Positions 1-19,072 of a stretch of 64,000 nt of DNA are shown here, one piece after another (positions within the stretch are counted from its first letter, which is position 1; each line of letters starts with the position of its first letter). Under the pieces are notes generated by a model. It was given only the letters and a program-made list of their open reading frames with translations. It did not search any database and was not told the origin of the DNA. The stretch is taken from positions 8,829-72,828 of the IMG/VR virus record IMGVR_UViG_3300014039_000016; one strand, 5' to 3'. The position numbers were made by a program, and so were the translations under genes. This stretch comes from a virus.

Positions 1-200
1 TCTAACTACAGTTAGTTTGAATTAACAAGGGTTAGCTTAATCTAACTAGGGTTATAAAATCCTAACTACAGTTAGTTTGAATTAACAACTGTTAGAAATT
101 GCTAACTTTACTTTTATAAAACGAACTTTGATTCGTCTTCTCTAACTTTAATTTTATACAGCTAACTACAGATAACTACAACTAATTAAAATTAGAGAAC
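1..200. repeat. Cluster of CTAACT/AGTTAG hexamers, including 27-bp direct repeats at 2-28 and 62-88 (ctaactacagttagtttgaattaacaa) and palindromic CTAACT-N2-3-AGTTAG units
   Basis: Direct reading. There are at least 12 copies of CTAACT or its complement in 200 bp. A third copy of the 27-mer lies at about 1594-1621. Confidence 0.8.
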
Positions 201-226
201 GCAAATCAAATTTTGGAGGATTGCCG

Positions 227-508
227 CTACTTGGCAACCCAAACCTTTAACAATATGTCGTCATATTTAGACGACTGGTCATTTACATCAAATAACATTT
301 TGACGCTTTGACCCTCGGCTATCTGGCAACCATCAAACTCCCAGATATCACCTGCCTTATCAGCAATCCGCACAAATCCGTTGTCGTTGCTGATAACCCT
401 GCCCTCTCTTGTGCAGTGACCCTCAAGGTATACCGCACCTAAGAATAATATACTTATACTTAATCCCAGGGCTATTTTCTTAACTATTCTCTTACTATTA
501 TTTTTCAT
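227..508 (-). CDS. Hypothetical secreted or membrane-anchored protein (N-terminal signal-peptide-like hydrophobic segment)
   Basis: ORF track 227..523. The ATG at 508 lies 8 nt downstream of a GAGGT. The annotated first codon is GTG. N-terminus KKIALGLSISILFLGAV. Confidence 0.5.
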   Translation of the reverse strand: MKNNSKRIVKKIALGLSISILFLGAVYLEGHCTREGRVISNDNGFVRIADKAGDIWEFDGCQIAEGQSVKMLFDVNDQSSKYDDILLKVWVAK

Positions 509-569
509 AATTTTAAACCTCACTTTTCATTTTTATTTTATGCGGGCTTGGTTTCCCAAGCCCTAATCA

Positions 570-878
570 TTAACAATATATCAAGGACATGTCTGCCCAC
601 TTGAGAATAGATATCTGTGCGCACTGTCTGCCAAGTGCCAAAGCGTCTCTTTTTGTAGACACTCTGTGGCTCTTGTCTACAAAGTAGACACCATTCTCAA
701 GCCAAAGTCCGCAATTACCGCCGTATGCCCTAACGGCTTTGATTGCTTCCTCGGGAGTTGTAACCATTACTCCCTCGGTGGCTACTTGATAACCACTCTT
801 GTATGTGATTATCTTACCATTCTTGAGTGTTAAACCGCCACACTCTTCAATCTTTCTTATTGTCCTAACATTAATCAT
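570..878 (-). CDS. Hypothetical protein
   Basis: ORF with a GAGGT RBS 9 nt upstream. No recognisable motif. Confidence 0.5.
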   Translation of the reverse strand: MINVRTIRKIEECGGLTLKNGKIITYKSGYQVATEGVMVTTPEEAIKAVRAYGGNCGLWLENGVYFVDKSHRVSTKRDALALGRQCAQISILKWADMSLIYC

Positions 879-918
879 ACTTATAATACCTCGCTTTCTT
901 TCTTGGGGAAGTCCCGGC

Positions 919-1185
919 TTAATAGCCGAGACTTATTAACTTACTGATATAAGTGTTTAAGACAGCCACCAACTGCTTATTTGAAAGATTTTTAAATCTT
1001 TCGGCAGTGAAGTCGATAGGTGGAAGTTCCACACCTTCGACCTTGATGATGTAAACGCTTGGACAAGCCTTGATAGCGTTTACAAGGTGGAAGATATTAA
1101 TATCTTCATATGCGTATGTCTTATCTGTATATTCCTCAAATCTGATTGAGAAGAGTTCTTTTGTAAATGCACTTAATTTTTTCAT
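919..1185 (-). CDS. Hypothetical protein
   Basis: ORF with a GAGGT RBS 7 nt upstream. Confidence 0.5.
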   Translation of the reverse strand: MKKLSAFTKELFSIRFEEYTDKTYAYEDINIFHLVNAIKACPSVYIIKVEGVELPPIDFTAERFKNLSNKQLVAVLNTYISKLISLGY

Positions 1186-1289
1186 GGTTAATACCTCACT
1201 TTATTTTTATTTTACGGCTTCGCTCACCGTACCTATATACTATCATACCCAGTTTTTGATGTCAATACCTTTTTGAAAAATTTTTGAAA

Positions 1290-1450
1290 TTTTTTTCATG
1301 CCCTACTTTCAAGGCTTCCAACGCACCTAAACACACGCAGCAGATGATGATGTGACTACATTTTTAGTCAACAATAGTGACGATGTGTCTACTTTTGTAG
1401 TCAGATAGTCACCAATTATGGGATAAGACTAGGCTTGTAGTCACACGCAA
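1290..1450. repeat. Iteron-like cluster of TGTAGTCAC / GTGACTACA motifs in both orientations
   Basis: Copies of gtgactaca, tgtagtcagatagtcacc and cttgtagtcacacgc lie within about 100 bp of non-coding DNA. Confidence 0.6.
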
Positions 1451-1530
1451 TGCGAGTTTGAAAAGTTTAATTAAGTAGTCAGATAGGCAAAATGCGGTGC
1501 GCTTTATGGGAGGAAGCGCGCCGTTCAAAA
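1400..1530. repeat. Copy A of a ~130-bp duplicated non-coding element, with a TAGTCACnnATTATGGGA box and a TTTGAAAnGTTTAA...AAAATGCGGnGCGCTTTATGGGAGnAAGCGC box containing a GCGCTT/AAGCGC palindrome
   Basis: Aligns with 2555-2685. The ends are conserved and the middle has diverged. Confidence 0.7.
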
Positions 1531-1660
1531 TAACTAACCAAAGTTAGTCAAGCCTAACAATAGTTAGACTAAACTAATTAGATTTCGGGAAGACTAACTT
1601 GAGTTAGTTTGAATTAACAAGTATTAAGCTTGGCTAACTCAAGTTAGTTTCCCAAAACCA
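1530..1660. repeat. Second CTAAC/GTTAG motif cluster, including a third copy of gttagtttgaattaacaa
   Basis: actaaccaaagttagtcaagcctaacaatagttagact...ctaacttgagttagtttgaattaacaag...ctaactcaagttag. Confidence 0.75.
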
Positions 1661-1845
1661 GATGAGTGCGGATTAGCGGTTTCCGCACTCATCTAATAAA
1701 CTAGACAAGAAGCCAATGATAAACTCCATAAGACTAAGAAGTTCATCATCAGATATGACTATGTGTGTAAGCACAAAGTCAATCTGACTATTGGCTTCTG
1801 TGACAGTGGAGCATTGCTCCACCATCACTATAGCTTCTATAAAAT

Positions 1846-2325
1846 TCATTCTATCACCTCCCCTGTTTTCTCATTTACCAAGTCACATCTAAGACCTAGT
1901 ATTCTGCAGGCTTTAGCTGTGTTATAGAACACTGCCTGTGCCTTGGCAAAACTCTCAATCCCTGTAAAGATTGGAGTATCACCATTATAAACTCCATAGG
2001 TTATTCCCTGGAGTTCAAACTCCGCTATTGCGGAGTTCACACAATCTGTTATTACTTCAAGAAGCTCTCCCTCGAAATACTCCTGAAGCTGATTCACTTC
2101 CTCAAGGCAGTTGAGATACATATCCCACTCACCCCAAGCTTCTGCCAGCTCATCATAGATTGCGCCAGTCACAAGGACTGTACAATCACTCCTAGTGCTT
2201 CTGTTGTAGATACCCTTAATAACTATAAGGGCATTCTTAGCCTTTGTATCAACGGCAACCCAGTTGCCTATTTCTAATTTCATGCCCATAAGTGACTGGG
2301 CATTTGTCTTGAATCCTTTTATCAT
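1846..2325 (-). CDS. Hypothetical protein. The start was reassigned to the internal MIKGF ATG
   Basis: The longer ORF 1846..2475 runs through the repeat/promoter region. The ATG at 2325 follows GAGG (gaggtaaatATG). Confidence 0.5.
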   Translation of the reverse strand: MIKGFKTNAQSLMGMKLEIGNWVAVDTKAKNALIVIKGIYNRSTRSDCTVLVTGAIYDELAEAWGEWDMYLNCLEEVNQLQEYFEGELLEVITDCVNSAIAEFELQGITYGVYNGDTPIFTGIESFAKAQAVFYNTAKACRILGLRCDLVNEKTGEVIE

Positions 2326-2554
2326 ATTTACCTCTTTCTGCCTCTTCTCTTGAGGCTGTTTATTTTTATTTTGCCGCCATTGCCTTGCGACACTATTATA
2401 GTACACCCATTGCACACCCATTGCAATATGCAAAATGCACAAAGTTTGACAGATGTTTTTGTGCAAATTGTACAAAGTTTGAACGCACTAGTTGAGAGCA
2501 CCGAACATTTGTTCACCGCTTTGGTTAGCTCCGAGAATAGTTTAGTTTTTTAGT

Positions 2555-2685
2555 CACATGATTATGGGAAGTTTTATTTGACTACTTGATTAGACTTTTG
2601 GAATTTGAAATGTTTAAATAACTAGAAATATAGTAAAATGCGGAGCGCTTTATGGGAGTAAGCGCACCGGCGATTTGAAATTGTA
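2555..2685. repeat. Copy B of the ~130-bp duplicated element (TAGTCACatgATTATGGGA ... AAAATGCGGaGCGCTTTATGGGAGtAAGCGC)
   Basis: Direct alignment with 1400-1530. A fifth TTATGGGA lies at about 2806-2814. Confidence 0.7.
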
Positions 2686-2903
2686 CGGGACTGTACTCTT
2701 GATGTATGCCATTTATTTTTTGATAAAGCTACAGACCGTACACAAGAGGTAGTCATCAGTTTAAAATAAAAAAAATTTTTCTTGTTTGTTTACTTTTACC
2801 CGGGGATATATTATGGGAAAATGAAAAATTAATTCTATAAAATCATATTTAGCTGGTACATTCACACACCCCAAATTTTTTGAAATTTAAAATACGAAAA
2901 GAT

Positions 2904-3209
2904 TTAATTCCGTACAACTCTTCCGTGCTTCCCTGTTTGCTTATATGCCATAAATAAATTATTTAATTTAATATTATTTCCATCTCCTAAATTAATTAAT
3001 AGGAAATCACAATTTTTTATAATATCTGCGGTTTCTGCATTTTTTATGTATCGGGTCGGTGCACCAACCGATTCAGCCCACTTTGCGGCAATACTATCCT
3101 TATTTGTTACTAACATATAAAATAAATAGCATTGACTTTCCGCAATTAATTTCTGCATTTCCGCATCAATATCTTCAATTTTATTAAAACCAATTGCCGC
3201 GACTACCAT
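2904..3209 (-). CDS. Hypothetical protein, possibly a small Rossmann-like fold
   Basis: ORF with an AAGGAG RBS. N-terminus MVVAAIGFNK. Confidence 0.45.
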   Translation of the reverse strand: MVVAAIGFNKIEDIDAEMQKLIAESQCYLFYMLVTNKDSIAAKWAESVGAPTRYIKNAETADIIKNCDFLLINLGDGNNIKLNNLFMAYKQTGKHGRVVRN

Positions 3210-3275
3210 TTTACCACTCCTTTATAATAATTATATCAAAAAATTTTTTTCTTTTCAAATTATCTACTTTTGTCC

Positions 3276-3304
3276 TTGACTTATGAAAATTTTTTTGGTA
3301 TAAT
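3276..3304 (+). promoter_or_regulatory. Sigma-A-type promoter: TTGACT, a 17-nt spacer ending in TGG, then TATAAT
   Basis: tccTTGACTtatgaaaatttttttgGTATAATtatt sits about 30 nt upstream of the RBS of the 3335 gene. Both hexamers are near-consensus with an extended -10 TG. Confidence 0.75.
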
Positions 3305-3334
3305 TATTATAAGAATAAGAATAAGGAGAGACTA

Positions 3335-4417
3335 ATGGAGCAACAAAAAGAAAATAGTGATTATATTAAAATGGATTTTAATATTGAATCACCTGCGGAA
3401 AGAGTAGAAAAAGTAAAAGAAATTATTGCCAACACTCCTCCTGAAAGATTAACTCATTCTTACTTAGAAAAATTAAGTAACTACATAATTTTTGCTATGG
3501 ATAAAGAAGAAAGAAAACAAAATAAAATCTTAACAGATAACCATATGCAAACAGTAAATGTAAGAGAGACATCTTTTGAAGGACTTGTAGGCAGATTAGA
3601 AAATGGCGAAGATGGTATATATAATATGATTGCGAATGACAAAAATATCATATTTAAGCCAAAATTTGAAATCACAGACGCGGATGTCGCGGAAATGCCT
3701 GAGTTAAGGGAACTCCGCAAGGGTATAGAAGAATTAAAGGAACAGTTAAAAGCAGCAAGAGGCAAAAAGGCATATCAAATAAAAAAACATATCATAGAAG
3801 CAAGTCAAGACCAGTATGTAATAAAAAATTCTTATAAAAAACCTATCTATTGTATAAATCCCCTTAAAAGTGTAGCAAAATTAGATTTAGATGAACATGT
3901 AACTATTGATGAAAATGATGAAATTCATACTGATGGTATTTTAAGTTTACTCGTGCCGCAACATATTTGCGCGGTATTGTGTAATTATGAAAAATTAAGA
4001 ATTCAAACTTGGGATAAATTAAATAGTGATGTTAAATGGTTTCTTGTAGATTTAGACAATCTTATAGATGAGACCTTAAAATATGATTATCCGATATATT
4101 ATGATATAACTCTCTTAAAGATTCGCGGCTATCAAAATACAGATATTCAAGAGTATTTAGAAAAAGAATATAATGTAAATCATTCTGTTGAATATATTTC
4201 TTCTCTTTGGAGAAACAAAATACCCAAACTACTTGCGGAAAAGGCTCAAGAAAAGTGGTTAGTTTGGTATTATACTAATAAAGCAGAAGGAAAATGGAAA
4301 AAATGTTCAAGGTGTGGGCAAATTAAGTTAGCTAGTAATAGATTCTTTTCAAAAAATAATACAAGCAAAGATGGTTTCTATAGTATATGTAAATGTTGTA
4401 GAAATAAAAGAAAATAA
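3335..4417 (+). CDS. Hypothetical protein with a C-terminal CxxC...CKCC zinc ribbon. It is the first gene of the rightward operon
   Basis: ORF with an AAGGAGAG RBS. C-terminus CSRCGQIKLASNRFFSKNNTSKDGFYSICKCC. Confidence 0.55.
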   Translation: MEQQKENSDYIKMDFNIESPAERVEKVKEIIANTPPERLTHSYLEKLSNYIIFAMDKEERKQNKILTDNHMQTVNVRETSFEGLVGRLENGEDGIYNMIANDKNIIFKPKFEITDADVAEMPELRELRKGIEELKEQLKAARGKKAYQIKKHIIEASQDQYVIKNSYKKPIYCINPLKSVAKLDLDEHVTIDENDEIHTDGILSLLVPQHICAVLCNYEKLRIQTWDKLNSDVKWFLVDLDNLIDETLKYDYPIYYDITLLKIRGYQNTDIQEYLEKEYNVNHSVEYISSLWRNKIPKLLAEKAQEKWLVWYYTNKAEGKWKKCSRCGQIKLASNRFFSKNNTSKDGFYSICKCCRNKRK

Positions 4418-4435: not shown

Positions 4436-5731
4436 ATGGGCGCACAAGAAGTAGAGCCAGGGAAATATTACTGTGAAAAATGTCGTAAGACAATGGGCGC
4501 AGTACAATTTTTTACCTATAAAGATGGTAGTAAAAGCGAATTGTGTAAGCAATGCTTAACTATGCATATTAACAACTGGGAGCCAGAAACATTCAAATGG
4601 CTATTGGAAAAATTTGATGTTCCATATCTCCCTTGGGAATGGGATAAAATTAGGGATAAACAATATGCGAAAGACCCCTATAAAATGACTGGAAATAGTG
4701 TTTTTGGTCGCTATCTCGCAAAAATGAAATTAAATCAATGGAATAAATATCATTGGTCTGATACTGAGCGGCTGGTGCGGGAGGCAGATGAACTTGCGAA
4801 TAGAGCGGCAGCGGCAAAAGAAGAAGATGAAAAACTTGAAAATATGCGAAAGCTCGCAGATGAAGGTGCAATTAGTGAATCTCAATATCAAACATACGCG
4901 GAAACGCAGATTGAGAAACCTATACCTAAGCCAGAGAGCTTACCCAACCCATATGAGAATGGGCAAGCCAATCCTGCATATCGAGCTGCCGCGCGAGCAT
5001 CTGTTTACCCTGTAAATAATAATCCATTTGAAGAGATTGATTTACCAGATGTCGGAAATGATTTAACGCAAGAGGATAAAATTTACTTAGCTACAAAATG
5101 GGGCAGATTTTATTCTGCGGAAGAGTGGGTAACTTTAGAAAAGAAATACAATGATTTCACAAATTCATTTGACATACATTCCGCGGCAACTATAGATACT
5201 TTAATTTTTATTTGTAAAACTTCATTAAAAATGAATCAGGCTCTTGATAGCGGAGATATTGAGTCTTATCAAAAATTATCAAGGGTTTATGATGCGCAGA
5301 TGAAAGCTGCGAAGTTCACAGAAGCGCAGAATAAAGAAGATAAAAGTAATGACTTTGATGCTATTGGTTGCATCGTTGAGTTCTGTGAAAAAGAAGGCGG
5401 CTTCATTCCAAGATTCTATACAGAGACTCCGCAAGATAAGGTTGATGTTGTTATTGCGGATGAAAAATCTTATGTTAAGTCTCTTGTTGATGGTGACTCT
5501 GGATTAGCACAACAGATAGAACAATATCTTAAGAAGCGTGAAATCCTTGAAGAACAAAAGAGAAATAAGGAAAAAGCAAAATTAGAAGGTAAAGAGCAGA
5601 TTGAATTAACAGATAAAGATATTCAAGAATATATAGAGCATCAGCAAAAAGAAAAAGAAAAAGATATTATCGCGGAAGATGATGATAATGAAGATAGTTT
5701 TGGAAGTCTTTTTAGCGTGGAGGTTGAATAA
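4436..5731 (+). CDS. Hypothetical protein with an N-terminal zinc ribbon, a coiled-coil and an acidic tail. It may be a small-terminase-like or DNA-binding packaging protein
   Basis: N-terminus CEKCRKTMGAVQFFTYKDGSKSELCKQC. It sits immediately upstream of terL. The function was not identified. Confidence 0.4.
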   Translation: MGAQEVEPGKYYCEKCRKTMGAVQFFTYKDGSKSELCKQCLTMHINNWEPETFKWLLEKFDVPYLPWEWDKIRDKQYAKDPYKMTGNSVFGRYLAKMKLNQWNKYHWSDTERLVREADELANRAAAAKEEDEKLENMRKLADEGAISESQYQTYAETQIEKPIPKPESLPNPYENGQANPAYRAAARASVYPVNNNPFEEIDLPDVGNDLTQEDKIYLATKWGRFYSAEEWVTLEKKYNDFTNSFDIHSAATIDTLIFICKTSLKMNQALDSGDIESYQKLSRVYDAQMKAAKFTEAQNKEDKSNDFDAIGCIVEFCEKEGGFIPRFYTETPQDKVDVVIADEKSYVKSLVDGDSGLAQQIEQYLKKREILEEQKRNKEKAKLEGKEQIELTDKDIQEYIEHQQKEKEKDIIAEDDDNEDSFGSLFSVEVE

Positions 5732-6354
5732 TGAGTTTACAAAGTATACTAGACCTTTCTGCGGAAAGAGATAATAAAAAAGTAGGCTGTTCAGAAGAAA
5801 GATTAAGAGAATGCCTTCCTGAATTGCGGAAGGCTATTGCTTTTTATCGTGAATATCCAGATATCTTTGTTGATGATATTAAAGGACCGGATTGTAACTT
5901 TCAATTTTATTTTTATCAGAGAGTTTTCTTAAGGTCGGTTATGCGACATCGTCGAGTTTATGCAGTATTTCCTCGTGCCTATAGTAAATCATTTCTAACT
6001 ATGATGGCTTTAATGCTGCGTGCGATTCTTTATCCAGGTGCAGCGTTATTTGTAACTACGGGCGGAAAAGAGCAAGCTGCAAGTATCACAATCGCGAAGA
6101 TTGAAGAAATTTGTCGACTTATTCCCGCGCTGAATAAAGAAATTAATTGGGATAGAGGAGCTTCAAAAAAATCAAAAGATAATGTAAAATACATCTTTAA
6201 GAATGGCTCTACTATTGATATTCTTGCGGCAAGGGAATCATCCAGAGGTCAGCGTCGTACTGGCGGAGCTATGGAAGAATGTGTACTTATTGATGGAACC
6301 GCCTTGAACGAAATAATTATTCCTAGACTTATAAGGTTGTGGGACCTAATTTAG
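5731..6354 (+). CDS. terL: Terminase large subunit, N-terminal ATPase part (exon 1). It carries a deviant Walker A, PRAYSKS
   Basis: The motif YAVFPRAYSKSF, the downstream ECVLID segment and synteny with the nuclease half and the portal. The ORF tail after VLID is probably intron read-through. Confidence 0.6.
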   Translation: MSLQSILDLSAERDNKKVGCSEERLRECLPELRKAIAFYREYPDIFVDDIKGPDCNFQFYFYQRVFLRSVMRHRRVYAVFPRAYSKSFLTMMALMLRAILYPGAALFVTTGGKEQAASITIAKIEEICRLIPALNKEINWDRGASKKSKDNVKYIFKNGSTIDILAARESSRGQRRTGGAMEECVLIDGTALNEIIIPRLIRLWDLI

Positions 6355-7399
6355 TAATAAATTAGTGCATGAACGGTGTGAACCCATTGGTTATGGGGTG
6401 TAGTATAAAGATATACTGCTAACGGTTAGGCTATAAATAAAGTGAGACCGTGCTAAGTTTATATTTTGTTATAAAAAAGTGTAGAGACTATCCAGAGGAG
6501 AAATACGCCTGGTTAGGGCTGAGAATAACCACAGCTCGAAGCGCACCGCAACTTTTTAAAATTTTTGGTCAAAAATATACAATAAAATTGTTCATTTTTT
6601 AATTTTATTGAGGGTATGTATATCCCGGGATAAAACTGAGTTATAGAAAGGAATTAAGAAAATGATTCAATGGAAAAAAAATTTTTATAGATGAAAAAGA
6701 GACTAATTACAGTGTTTCTAGCACTGGAGAGGTCAGAAATGATATAACTAAAAAAATATTATCACAAAGAATTCAACAAGGGTATAAACATGTAACTTTA
6801 TCATTACCAAATAAAATAAAATCATGTCGAGTTCACAGGCTTGTAGCACAAGCCTTTATTGAGAATCCTGAAAACAAACCCTATGTGAATCATATTGATT
6901 GTGATAGAAGTAATAATAATGTTGAAAATTTAGAATGGGTAACACCAAAAGAGAATTCTCAAAAAGCGGTTCTAGAAGGTAAATTTTTAAATAGTTCCCA
7001 TTTAAGACCTGTTGTTCAGTATAGTTTAGCAGGAAAAAAGATTAGAACTTTTGAAAGTGCCATTGAGGCAGCAAGACAGTTAAATTTACAACAATCTAAA
7101 ATAACAGAATGTTGTAGAAGAAATAGAAAAAGAACCGGAGAATATCAATGGAGATATGCAGATGAAGAATGTCTTCAATTAGAACCTATTCAAAAACAAA
7201 ATCGCCCTGGAGTGAAAGTTGCAAGATGCAACGATGATTTAGTTATATTAGAAATTTATAATTCCTATAAAGAAGCAGCAAATGCAATAAAAGGTAGTTA
7301 TCAAGCTATTGCTGCAATATGTAATGGAACAACTATAAATATTCATCATAAAGGCTGGAGATGGAAAAAAGTTGATGATATAGTCCAATCAAACAATGA
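6355..7399 (+). mobile_element. Intervening sequence splitting terL. I interpret it as a putative group I intron carrying an HNH homing endonuclease ORF
   Basis: About 300 nt of structured non-coding sequence (aaagatatactgc and agagactatcc resemble group I S/R elements; tatcccgggata is palindromic) precedes the HNH ORF. The downstream terL frame opens exactly at 7400 with no RBS or ATG. Confidence 0.5.
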
Positions 7400-7403
7400 T
7401 TGA
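6662..7403 (+). CDS. HNH homing endonuclease of the HNH_3 type. The ATG at 6662 with its RBS is in a different frame from the HNH core, and the two frames are separated by an A8 run at 6674-6681
   Basis: VNHIDCDRSNNNVENLEWVTPKEN HNH motif. The upstream in-frame peptide ...YSVSSTGEVRND matches the conserved N-terminus of this family. The track ORF 6885..7403 is the in-frame core. Confidence 0.8.
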
Positions 7404-8551
7404 CAACGAATGTTGATAGACGACTTGCAGACGGAAGTAGAGACCCTAAAGAAACAGTAAATAAAAGTCAGGTATATATTACAACCGCGGGATGGAAGAA
7501 TTCATTTGCATATGAACATCTGATTGAGATGTTAATTGATTCAATTCTAGACCCAGGTGAAGTAATGATACTAGGTGGAACATATGAAGTTCCAGTTGAA
7601 GCGGGCTTATTAAGTGAAGACTTTGTAGACCAGCTAAAATTGCAAGGTACATTCAATGATGCCTCCTTTGACCGAGAATATAGGAGTATTTGGTCAGGAG
7701 ACGCGGAAAATGCTTTCTTCTCCAATGAATTATTTGATAAATATCGTCAATTACTTCAACCAGAATATGAATTCAGTTCAAGAAGTTCAAAAAATGCATA
7801 CTATATACTTTCAGTCGATGTAGGTCGTTTTGGTTGTACAACTGAAGTTATGGTTATAAAAGTAACGCCGCAAGTGCAGGGAACAGCATTGAAGACTCTT
7901 GTTAATATTTATAGCTATGATGAAGAGCATTTTGGAGTTCAAGCTATAAATATAAAAAAACTTTATTACAAATATCGTGCGAGAACCGTGGTTATAGATG
8001 CCAATGGTCTAGGTGCTGGACTTGTGGACTTTATGATAATAGGTCAAGAAGACCCGAAAACAGGAGAATATTATCCACCTTTTGGAGTAGAAGGCGGAAC
8101 TTTCGATGATTGGTATGACCAGTATAAGAAATTTAAAACAGATGATATGGTTAGAGATGCGATGTATTTAATTAAGGCTAATGCGCCAATTAACACTGAA
8201 GCTCATAGTTATTGTCAAACTCAAATATCTAGTGGGAAAATTAAATTTTTAATTGATGAAAGAGATGCAAAAATAAAATTAATGTCCACAAAAGTTGGTC
8301 AAGAAATGACTCCAGAACAACGTGCGGAAAGGTTGATACCATTCACCTTAACCACGATACTGAAGGAACAAATGCTGAATCTGGTGGAAGAGAACGAGGG
8401 TGTAAATATTATTCTTAAGCAAGCTAATAGAGGAATTAAGAAAGATAAATTCTCTGCTTTCGAGTATGGATTATACTATATAAAGCAGCAAGAAGATAGG
8501 AAAAAAGATAGACATAGTAGAGATGTTTCAAAAATGATGTTTTTCAGTTAA
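7400..8551 (+). CDS. terL: Terminase large subunit, C-terminal part (exon 2) with an RNase-H-like nuclease domain
   Basis: YITTAGW and the acidic motifs ILSVDVGRFG and VVIDANGLGAGL. The frame opens at 7400 with only a TTG codon and no SD. Confidence 0.6.
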   Translation: MTTNVDRRLADGSRDPKETVNKSQVYITTAGWKNSFAYEHLIEMLIDSILDPGEVMILGGTYEVPVEAGLLSEDFVDQLKLQGTFNDASFDREYRSIWSGDAENAFFSNELFDKYRQLLQPEYEFSSRSSKNAYYILSVDVGRFGCTTEVMVIKVTPQVQGTALKTLVNIYSYDEEHFGVQAINIKKLYYKYRARTVVIDANGLGAGLVDFMIIGQEDPKTGEYYPPFGVEGGTFDDWYDQYKKFKTDDMVRDAMYLIKANAPINTEAHSYCQTQISSGKIKFLIDERDAKIKLMSTKVGQEMTPEQRAERLIPFTLTTILKEQMLNLVEENEGVNIILKQANRGIKKDKFSAFEYGLYYIKQQEDRKKDRHSRDVSKMMFFS

Positions 8552-8556
8552 AAAAT

Positions 8557-8593
8557 GCGGGCAGATTTATATAATTTGCCCGTACTTATTTTT
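8557..8593 (+). terminator. Possible intrinsic terminator (gcgggca...tgcccgt followed by acttattttt)
   Basis: A 6-7 bp GC stem with a 13-nt loop and a T-run. Confidence 0.4.
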
Positions 8594-8629
8594 AATTAAT
8601 ATAGTAAGGATTACATCATTGCACTTAAT

Positions 8630-9001
8630 GTGGAGGTGAGTAATTTGAGAAGTTCTCGTGGAGAAATAAAAATTGAAGAAATTTTAACAATGGCAAACTT
8701 ACCTTTTCAAGAGGAGTATAGTTTTCCAGACTTAGTAAGTTCGAGTGGAAGACCATTGCGTTTTGACTTCTGTGTATTCGATGACAATGGAGATATAGAT
8801 TTCTTAATCGAGTATCAAGGCATCCAACACTACGAGGCCAAGTCGAAATTTGGAGGTACTAAAGGATTGTATCGCCAGCAATATAATGATAAGATGAAAA
8901 GAATTTATTGCCAGCAACATAATTATACTTTAGTTATTATTCCTTATTGGGAAGAAGGACTAGTAGATTACGATTATTTATTAAAAGCCGCAGGTTATTG
9001 A
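8630..9001 (+). CDS. Vsr/DUF559-like protein with a PD-(D/E)xK endonuclease fold. It may be a free-standing nuclease
   Basis: RFDFCVFDDNGDIDFLIEYQGIQHYE resembles the DUF559 l.IE.DG.QH signature. Confidence 0.4.
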   Translation: MEVSNLRSSRGEIKIEEILTMANLPFQEEYSFPDLVSSSGRPLRFDFCVFDDNGDIDFLIEYQGIQHYEAKSKFGGTKGLYRQQYNDKMKRIYCQQHNYTLVIIPYWEEGLVDYDYLLKAAGY

Positions 9002-19053: not shown

Positions 19054-19072
19054 GTTTATGGGAGGTGAGACA

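Follow-up and report, generated by a model that had tools for sequence, protein, structure and literature searches.

What does a non-coding element do that recurs between the leftward early operons of a large phage? The 64,000-nucleotide (nt) stretch analysed here, called the window throughout (positions 8,829 to 72,828 of the IMG/VR virus record IMGVR_UViG_3300014039_000016), contains two such stretches, copy A at 1400-1530 and copy B at 2555-2685, which an initial annotation had described as diverged copies of one element with five TTATGGGA boxes and a conserved palindrome. The duplication holds up and looks functional, and the element appears to be a diverged member of a cassette that is widespread in large Firmicute siphophages. 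The explanation we favour, with a confidence that stays a little short of even, is that the cassette is a short untranslated RNA gene on the + strand, driven by a sigma-A promoter and starting with a hairpin. Each copy would then form the rightward half of a divergent early-control region recurring between leftward early operons, and its product would be a short RNA made, untranslated, against the direction of the neighbouring early genes.

The boxes are over-represented. TTATGGGA occurs eight times in the window (2.7 copies expected; no shuffled sequence reached eight), and five copies do lie on the + strand within 1416-2818, starting at 1416, 1504, 2562, 2650 and 2811. They are not one kind of site: three are an upstream box with the family consensus TTnYGGGA and two are hairpin loops. 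The fifth (TTATGGGAAAAT), expected at about 2806, is present at 2811-2818; it belongs by sequence to the upstream-box type and is identical in the related loci L001 and L002 (relatives are denoted by such numbers below), and no promoter or hairpin was found after it. The block AAAATGCGGnGCGCTTTATGGGAGnAAGCGCnCCG, at 1489-1523 in A and 2635-2669 in B, is identical between the copies at 32 of 35 positions, and in each of them box 2 follows box 1 at a distance of exactly 88 nt, although the intervals from box 1 to the -35-like hexamer and from there to the hairpin differ by indels (+1/-1) that offset each other. When A and B were compared without gaps over 140 nt, 63 of 140 positions (45%) were identical, and the best unrelated window reached 61 of 140. 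Because the overall identity barely exceeds this value, the likeness is carried by the boxes alone, and the description as diverged copies means common parts in a common order and spacing: boxes, order and the 88-nt distance are kept, the 140-nt stretches as wholes are not.

Relatives with both copies were found by a pattern search, namely two IMG/VR contigs (145-147 kb) and four metagenome fragments; the close set used here comprises six genomes including the window, both copies being taken from each, which gave 12 aligned element copies. On the + strand, each copy reads box, ~34 nt, TTGAAA, 18 nt, -10 position, the leader AAAATG and a GC-clamped hairpin, which begins 6-7 nt past the -10 position in both. 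Read as a transcription unit, this order would correspond to a TTnTGGGA box within inverted arms, followed after ~34 nt by a host sigma-A promoter with the hairpin at the predicted start. In copy B, box 1 (2562-2569, TTATGGGA in the window) lies 35 nt ahead of the -35 of a rightward promoter, TTGAAA-18-TATAGT (2605-2634), which matches 10 of the 12 consensus positions and whose -35, spacer and -10 are invariant in the six genomes (L003 7263-7292); leader and hairpin (CGGAGCGCTT-TATGGGAGT-AAGCGCACCG) follow at 2635-2669, and promoter geometry puts the probable transcript start at ~2638-2641, at the foot of the stem. In copy A, box 1 (TTATGGGA, 1416-1423) lies 34 nt ahead of the -35-like hexamer of what looks like a promoter remnant (1458-1488), which consists of TTGAAA (1458-1463), a spacer and a degenerate -10 (AGATAGGC), and is followed at 1489-1523 by AAAATG and the hairpin CGGTGCGCTT-TATGGGAGG-AAGCGCGCCG (stem 1495-1504 with 1514-1523, loop 1505-1513). 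In none of the six genomes does the -10 region of A contain a hexamer combining A at position 2 with T at position 6; around the -10 it aligns base for base with the perfect promoter of a paralogous unit in L003 at 4181 (TATAATAGGCAAATTCCGG versus GATAGGCAAAATGCGG). Judged from these alignments, B retains a usable promoter, whereas A appears to have lost its -10 and kept its hairpin.

In both copies of the window the arms TAGTC(A)...(T)GACTA bracket box 1, and three GACTA-N6-TAGTC palindromes (1353-1370, 1386-1403 and 1426-1443), which look like operator sites, flank and overlap box 1 of A. Downstream of A or B no + strand open reading frame (ORF) of at least 30 amino acids (aa) was found before the next gene. 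Each copy lies upstream of a leftward gene, as had been noted with a distance of about 300 bp: the start codons at 1185 and 2328 are 215-357 nt from the elements.

Gene order around A and B is the same in the six genomes. Across the 12 copies, the parts that do not vary are TTnTGGGA, AAAATGCG, the loop with the inner stem (CGCTTTATGGGAG-AAGCG) and CCG, with little likeness outside the boxes, so that the proposed selective conservation of cis elements is borne out. Box 1 of B reads TTATGGGA in the window only and TTGTGGGA in the five relatives, which leaves TTnTGGGA as the invariant core. Between genomes, nucleotide identity is 85-98% for the intergenic modules, compared with a protein identity of 48-53% for the flanking ORFs. 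The diverged early ORFs are 919-1185 and 1846-2328 in the window and 5239-5574 and 6193-6669 in L003, which has an extra ORF; the pattern points to mosaic exchange or fast evolution of the early genes between conserved joints.

Further units with the layout of A and B, aligned to them by anchoring on the -35-like hexamer, lie a short way left of the position equivalent to the window start in L003 (-35 at 1249, 2793 and 4181) and L040 (1634, 2969 and 4490). They have sigma-A promoters matching 11-12 of 12 positions with a TG extended -10, a TTTYGGGA box 32 nt upstream of the -35 and a GC-rich hairpin that begins 7-9 nt past the -10. Arrays of CTAACT/AGTTAG follow both copy A and the L003 4181 cassette. 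In L003, the three units (1249-1325, 2793-2865 and 4181-4250) all have 12/12 promoters with an extended -10 and predicted RNAs of ~45 nt, which consist of CCGGC-NNN-GCCGG and a second hairpin with a U-tract; their loops vary, and the second stem covaries (CGCCC/GGGCG versus CGCGC/GCGCG).

Is the hairpin maintained as a structure? In A and B its 10-bp stem includes a single wobble or mismatch and encloses a loop of 7-9 nt, with RNA folding energies of -12.9 to -20.2 kcal/mol and z-scores of -1.4 to -4.0. Copy A of the window folds at -20.2 kcal/mol on the + strand (z -4.0) versus -13.2 on the minus strand, a bias that is opposite in copy A of the L040 type. Among the six close genomes there is one compensatory change from a G-C to an A-T pair (ACGCTT...AAGCGT in copy A of four genomes versus GCGCTT...AAGCGC elsewhere); the stem position beside it is variable and mostly unpaired. 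The stronger evidence comes from distant relatives. A covariance model built solely from 26 distant cassettes retrieved 35 cassettes at an expectation value (E) of at most 0.01, all of them on the + strand, its members scoring 31-60 bits. In the alignment of these 35 cassettes, five of the eight stem pairs are changed on both sides, with 40 doubly changed cells versus 21.6 in column shuffles (none of 500 reached 40) and a covariation score of 0.265 versus 0.04-0.10 for slid partners; the alignment is fitted to the model, which favours the structure, and the slid controls share this bias yet score far lower. A strand-neutral stem finder counted 614 Watson-Crick pairs at 676 positions in 63 hairpins. 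Covariation, proposed earlier as a check in homologous phages, is found, and the evidence argues that the hairpin is selected as a structure.

For the wider set, a neighbouring 360-aa protein was used as query and returned 45 IMG/VR loci with 51-98% identity, most of them 55-63%. From 24 loci (at least 24 related contigs) we collected 45 non-redundant cassettes, so that the conservation asked of related phages extends from the two copies in six genomes to the architecture in at least 24 more distant contigs. In phages whose 360-aa neighbour is 55-63% identical the same order of parts recurs in the early regions: on the + strand, a leftward early promoter, inverted arms (TTGCACAAA ... TTTGTGCAA, or perfect DnaA-box sequences TGTGGATAA in L042 and L044) around a box AAATTTCGGGATC, a promoter TTGACA-17/18-TATAAT, GGAAATTT, a hairpin stem that opens with CGG and closes with CCG, and CC with an A-tract, often ending with a second hairpin that is the terminator of the convergent leftward operon. 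TTATGGGA itself is absent from all the more distant loci retrieved with the 360-aa protein. The family spacing is a TTnYGGGA box, 24-35 nt, the -35, 17-18 nt, the -10, 4-9 nt and a GC-rich hairpin, and A and B fit it. At L004 1912 the sequence reads TATAAT-AAAA-GCGGTGCGC-loop-GCGCACCGC, with a 5' arm equal to that of copy A and a different loop. Typical members score 11-12 of 12 against the sigma-A consensus, compared with 10 of 12 for B and no usable -10 in A. The cultured Enterococcus phage VRE9_2 (PP680568.1) has two weaker examples, rightward units whose -35 hexamers lie at ~123,261 and ~125,790.

Orientation and coding content set these promoters apart from those of the early genes. In the early-gene stretch upstream in 43 loci and the window, each sequence being counted once, 45 of the 105 near-consensus promoters on the + strand start with a hairpin, as against nine of 269 on the early-gene strand. 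A Shine-Dalgarno (SD) sequence with start codon and an ORF of at least 30 codons follows four of the 45 + strand hairpin promoters (41 lack it) and 220 of 260 hairpin-less leftward promoters. A and B, which lie between leftward early operons, are oriented against them and have no ORF, occupy the family position. Promoter evidence therefore points to the + strand, and the promoter and small-RNA readings of the initial annotation can be retained as the best candidates. The promoter is not phage-specific, as had been proposed, since B has ordinary sigma-A -35 and -10 hexamers and near-consensus sigma-A promoters also precede the structural genes.

If the + strand is transcribed, the loop of A and B (UAUGGGAGG) would display GGGAGG, an SD sequence orphaned by the lack of a following start codon: ATG, GTG and TTG are all missing 5-12 nt past it in five of the six genomes, and in copy B of L040 an ATG 10 nt past it opens a frame of two codons only. 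In Bacilli, the downstream RNA is stabilised by a stem-loop at the 5' end, by a strong SD that lacks a start codon or by both, examples being the STAB-SD of cryIIIA, the leaders of aprE and ermC and the polypurine stabiliser of Hue et al. 1995 (PMC3997798). Since a 5' stem-loop with an orphan SD is the classical Firmicute 5' stabiliser, a protective role suggests itself for the hairpin of A and B, which would shield the rightward RNA from 5'-end-dependent decay. The likeness has limits: known stabilisers head long mRNAs, whereas no ORF follows here; the SD lies inside the hairpin loop; and the 5' location is the one predicted from promoter geometry. The leftward mRNAs of the clade also open with a small hairpin and an A-rich stretch, so that 5' hairpins seem to be the house style of the phage; in the window, three leftward early units (526-544, 1200-1218 and 2359-2377) share a 5' untranslated region of a small hairpin, AAAATAAAAATAAA and an SD. 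An RNA from A would cross the CTAACT/AGTTAG array, and one from B would cross the 2686-2900 spacer, which holds the fifth box, and then run antisense into the gene at 2904-3209.

The closest described system is that of the promoter-early stem-loop (PeSL) cassettes of T4-like phages (Arbiol et al. 2010, PMC2839356; Comeau et al. 2014, PMC4122927), although the cassettes described here are not PeSL. Both are small multi-copy non-coding cassettes between small early ORFs, in which a GC-rich stem-loop accompanies a strong host promoter of the sigma-70 type; an AT-rich stretch lying upstream of the strong sigma-70-like promoter is likewise found here, and in both cases the cassettes are far better conserved than the flanking ORFs, which would let them act as joints for modular exchange. 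In PeSL, however, the stem-loop is a terminator that lies upstream of a promoter reading in the direction of the genes, whereas here the hairpin lies at the predicted +1 of a promoter that faces against the genes, without U-tract or ORF. The hosts differ as well, being Proteobacteria for PeSL and Firmicutes here.

Several observations weigh against the favoured explanation of a sigma-A-driven RNA gene. Copy A lacks a usable -10 in all six genomes while its hairpin and loop are perfectly kept, so that the hairpin matters in its own right and may work without rightward transcription. In a 4-kb search the covariance-model scores, 11.5 bits for B (E 0.29) and 8.0 bits for A (E 1.3), fall below significance; each copy is nevertheless placed in register along the full 8-bp stem. 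Most of the model's weight comes from TATAAT, AAATTTCG and the A-tract, features that A and B have lost in part, and the family membership of A and B accordingly rests on order, spacing and position. SD-like loops occur, by our own reading of the listed loops, in only ~8 of the 45 related cassettes, so the stabiliser idea covers at most the A/B subfamily. The RNAs predicted from A and B lack an evident terminator. Taken over the family, the stems favour neither strand, with 18 wobble pairs on the + strand and 21 on the minus strand and a mean energy difference of 0.2 kcal/mol, which means that an RNA from either strand or a DNA structure fits them equally; a comparison of G-U with A-C pairs over the 63 hairpins gave no asymmetry either, and the stems alone leave the strand undecided. 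A hint in favour of the + strand comes from the positionally equivalent cassette of L044, in which two G-U pairs are permitted on that strand only.

The RNA-gene explanation has a bolder extension, which we consider unlikely: the cassettes, at three to six per genome, would make up an undescribed class of phage small RNAs with near-perfect host promoters and a shape conserved rather than a sequence, placed head-on between all early operons, with the GGGAGG loop of A and B binding the 30S subunit and the class serving a dedicated role. If true, such roles could include activating the CTAACT/AGTTAG iteron array as an origin, insulating the early operons by head-on transcription, or decoying host RNases or ribosomes. 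A complement of the loop (CTCCCATA) that could serve as a target in trans was found nowhere else on a transcribed strand within the window.

The conservation of copy A without its -10 but with a perfect hairpin lends real weight to a role at the level of DNA, even if we think such a role improbable. TTnTGGGA would then be bound by a phage or host protein, as an operator or as an accessory of an origin or partition site, with both boxes of an element bound jointly and the palindrome acting as DNA (perhaps a cruciform or structure-specific site). TTnTGGGA is the sole invariant stretch in the left half of the 12 copies and always lies on the same strand, the 88-bp box-to-box distance is held in both paralogues despite the compensating indels, and the neighbourhood is rich in repeats that resemble protein sites (GACTA-N6-TAGTC, and CTAACT-NN-AGTTAG in a 20-bp register). 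In the distant cassettes the box AAATTTCGGGATC sits between its inverted arms 8 nt upstream of each of two divergent -35s, the arms being perfect DnaA boxes in L042 and L044, and the missing strand bias of the stems would fit a DNA structure. Yet the equal 88-bp spacing is known from two paralogues only, box 2 is the loop of a covarying hairpin, and the stem sequences vary among cassettes, even within a genome, while staying complementary, unlike a sequence-specific duplex site. No candidate binding protein was found, and Pfam gave no match for the small early ORFs or for the 360-aa neighbour.

More doubtful is a leftward terminator or attenuator, in which the minus-strand hairpin with its CAUUUU(G/A)C tail would insulate the next early promoter in the manner of the T4 PeSL stem-loops, which terminate ahead of early promoters (PMC2839356). 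Both hairpins do lie downstream, in the leftward sense, of a leftward unit; hairpin B is the first stable one past the stop of the gene 2904-3209, no other terminator-like site being flagged on the minus strand in 2640-2904, and the homologous hairpin of L004 is followed on that strand by UUUUAUUAUA. The terminator scan, however, flagged neither 1495-1523 nor 2641-2669, whose loop is 9 nt long and whose tails (CAUUUUG and CAUUUUA) have four U; the U-tract on the minus strand of the family lies upstream of the cassette hairpin and belongs to the separate second hairpin; and termination does not require a loop conserved base by base across paralogues. The operon 2328 to 1673 moreover has a stronger terminator of its own ahead of hairpin A (GATGAGTGCGGA...TCCGCACTCATC then GGUUUUGGG, 1660-1695, minus strand; recognised by reading the sequence, not by the consensus terminator scan), so that hairpin A is not its primary terminator.

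The small RNA first suggested for this locus was one from the minus strand, whose UCCC or CCUCCC motifs, in the loop and in the other boxes, would pair with the SD sequences of targets; we regard this as very unlikely. C-rich loops that target SD sequences are typical of Firmicute small RNAs such as RsaE/RoxS, and the likeness is there, as the motif reads UCCCAUAA on the minus strand five times in 1.4 kb and is exposed in a hairpin loop as CCUCCCAUA. The predicted CCUCCC itself occurs in the loop of B in the five other genomes, the window reading CCUCCCAUA in A and ACUCCCAUA in B. Unlike in the RsaE/RoxS type, no promoter-like minus-strand site was found upstream of either hairpin before the next gene promoter, and the one minus-strand candidate that makes use of box 1 (1444-1415, 9/12) is not conserved in the relatives. 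The promoter elements and orientation bias of the family lie on the opposite strand (35 of 35 model matches; 45 hairpin promoters against nine), from which an RNA would show the SD-like GGGAGG and not an anti-SD CCUCCC. Minus-strand loops in the paralogous cassettes are not rich in C, and Rfam gave nothing relevant: the scan of 1-4000 by E-value yielded only chance sub-threshold matches to microRNAs and CRISPR repeats, and no match in the whole window reached the gathering score.

The remaining candidates were rejected. A phage-specific promoter read by the PHROG 5767 'sigma factor' fails because TTATGGGA lies upstream of no structural gene (the copies at 19056 and 34225 are inside ORFs), the structural genes have sigma-A-type promoters and the protein has no Pfam sigma domain; a leftward promoter using box 1 as a CATAAT -10 scores 9/12 in copy A of the window only, is lost in the relatives and is impossible in their copy B (CCCACAAC). 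Small peptides from the ATG in TTATGGGA would have no SD and frames differing in length and sequence between copies, and a CodY site matches the box in part but misses the conserved GGGA. ATGGGnGG as an ancient loop motif is weak, being present in the equivalent cassette of L013 and L044 but replaced by GTGGG in L042, and the 'CCA' often found after the stems, which would suggest a tRNA minihelix, is accounted for by the neighbouring terminator's A-tract and does not occur in A or B.

Among the neighbouring features, the leftward operon 1185 to 227 has the early promoter TTGACA-17-TAGTAT (1237-1265, minus strand), with A lying 150-290 nt upstream, and the operon 2328 to 1673 has a TATAAT -10 (2395-2400, minus strand) without a -35 at 16-18 nt, with B 155-290 nt upstream. 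The 21-nt TGCAAAATGCACAAAGTTTGA is directly repeated twice at 2429-2482, upstream of this TATAAT, and the promoter, judged by its sequence, may be activator-dependent (middle-type). Directly downstream of hairpin A, at 1534-1647, lies an array of CTAACY-NN-AGTTAG palindromes in a 20-bp register, which neighbours element A and is outside the duplication. Arrays of this 14-bp palindrome in the same register occupy a common genomic position in 12 or more related loci, distant ones included (window 2-200 and 1534-1647; L003 4249-4500; L026 5218-5413; L033 6590-6715; L036 3161-3440), and look like iterons for a dimeric protein, that is, an origin, partition site or operator array. At the equivalent position VRE9_2 has AATAACAAGTGTTATTT palindromes in a 1.2-kb non-coding stretch.

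In other members of the family, perfect promoters face each other across a hairpin with 25-45 nt between their -10s (L006 2308-2411 and 2481-2563; L044 1368-1460; L022 134-230), and the two short RNAs of such loci would be mutually complementary. By eye, tRNA-like T-arm sequences (GAGTTCGATTCTC) were seen on the minus strand downstream of perfect leftward promoters in L042 (~2600) and L044 (~2619), and GTTCGAT lies in or near the loop of two rightward cassettes (L013/L044; L041).

The window derives from a large siphophage whose host is an anaerobic Firmicute. Genes for a 3069-aa tape measure protein, a portal protein, NrdD and DNA polymerase are present, the prohead protease shares 36-38% identity with counterparts from large Bacillus phages, and the genes have strong SD sites and sigma-A-type promoters. 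A search for DNA similarity among deposited phages gave a single unrelated 245-nt match and no annotated close relative, and no tRNA or tmRNA was found in the window. Small leftward operons occupy 1-3250, with proteins lacking PHROG or Pfam matches, and the rightward structural genes begin at 3335. The first of these (3335-4417), immediately before the packaging genes, encodes the PHROG 5767 'sigma factor' protein; Pfam recognises no sigma domain in it, and the PHROGs matched by its C-terminal zinc ribbon are those of endonuclease VII and HNH, so the label seems doubtful. The gene for the terminase large subunit is apparently split into an N part (5731-6354) and a C part (7400-8551), with a 530-nt gap and the ORF of an HNH endonuclease (6885-7403) between them. 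Another homing endonuclease (8630-9001) lies ahead of the portal gene, and no intron family was detected in this region (5731-9001).

Taken alone, the window is modest, with two diverged and partly decayed members of the family, and the larger pattern is the more interesting one. Should the cassettes be transcribed in the predicted way, each gap between the early operons of this phage group would encode a short hairpin RNA directed against the early genes, from a promoter among the strongest of the genome. Such a layer of early-gene organisation is undescribed for Firmicute phages and would bear on the insulation, co-regulation and modular exchange of early operons in a group that includes cultured phages of Enterococcus faecium and E. 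faecalis of interest for therapy.

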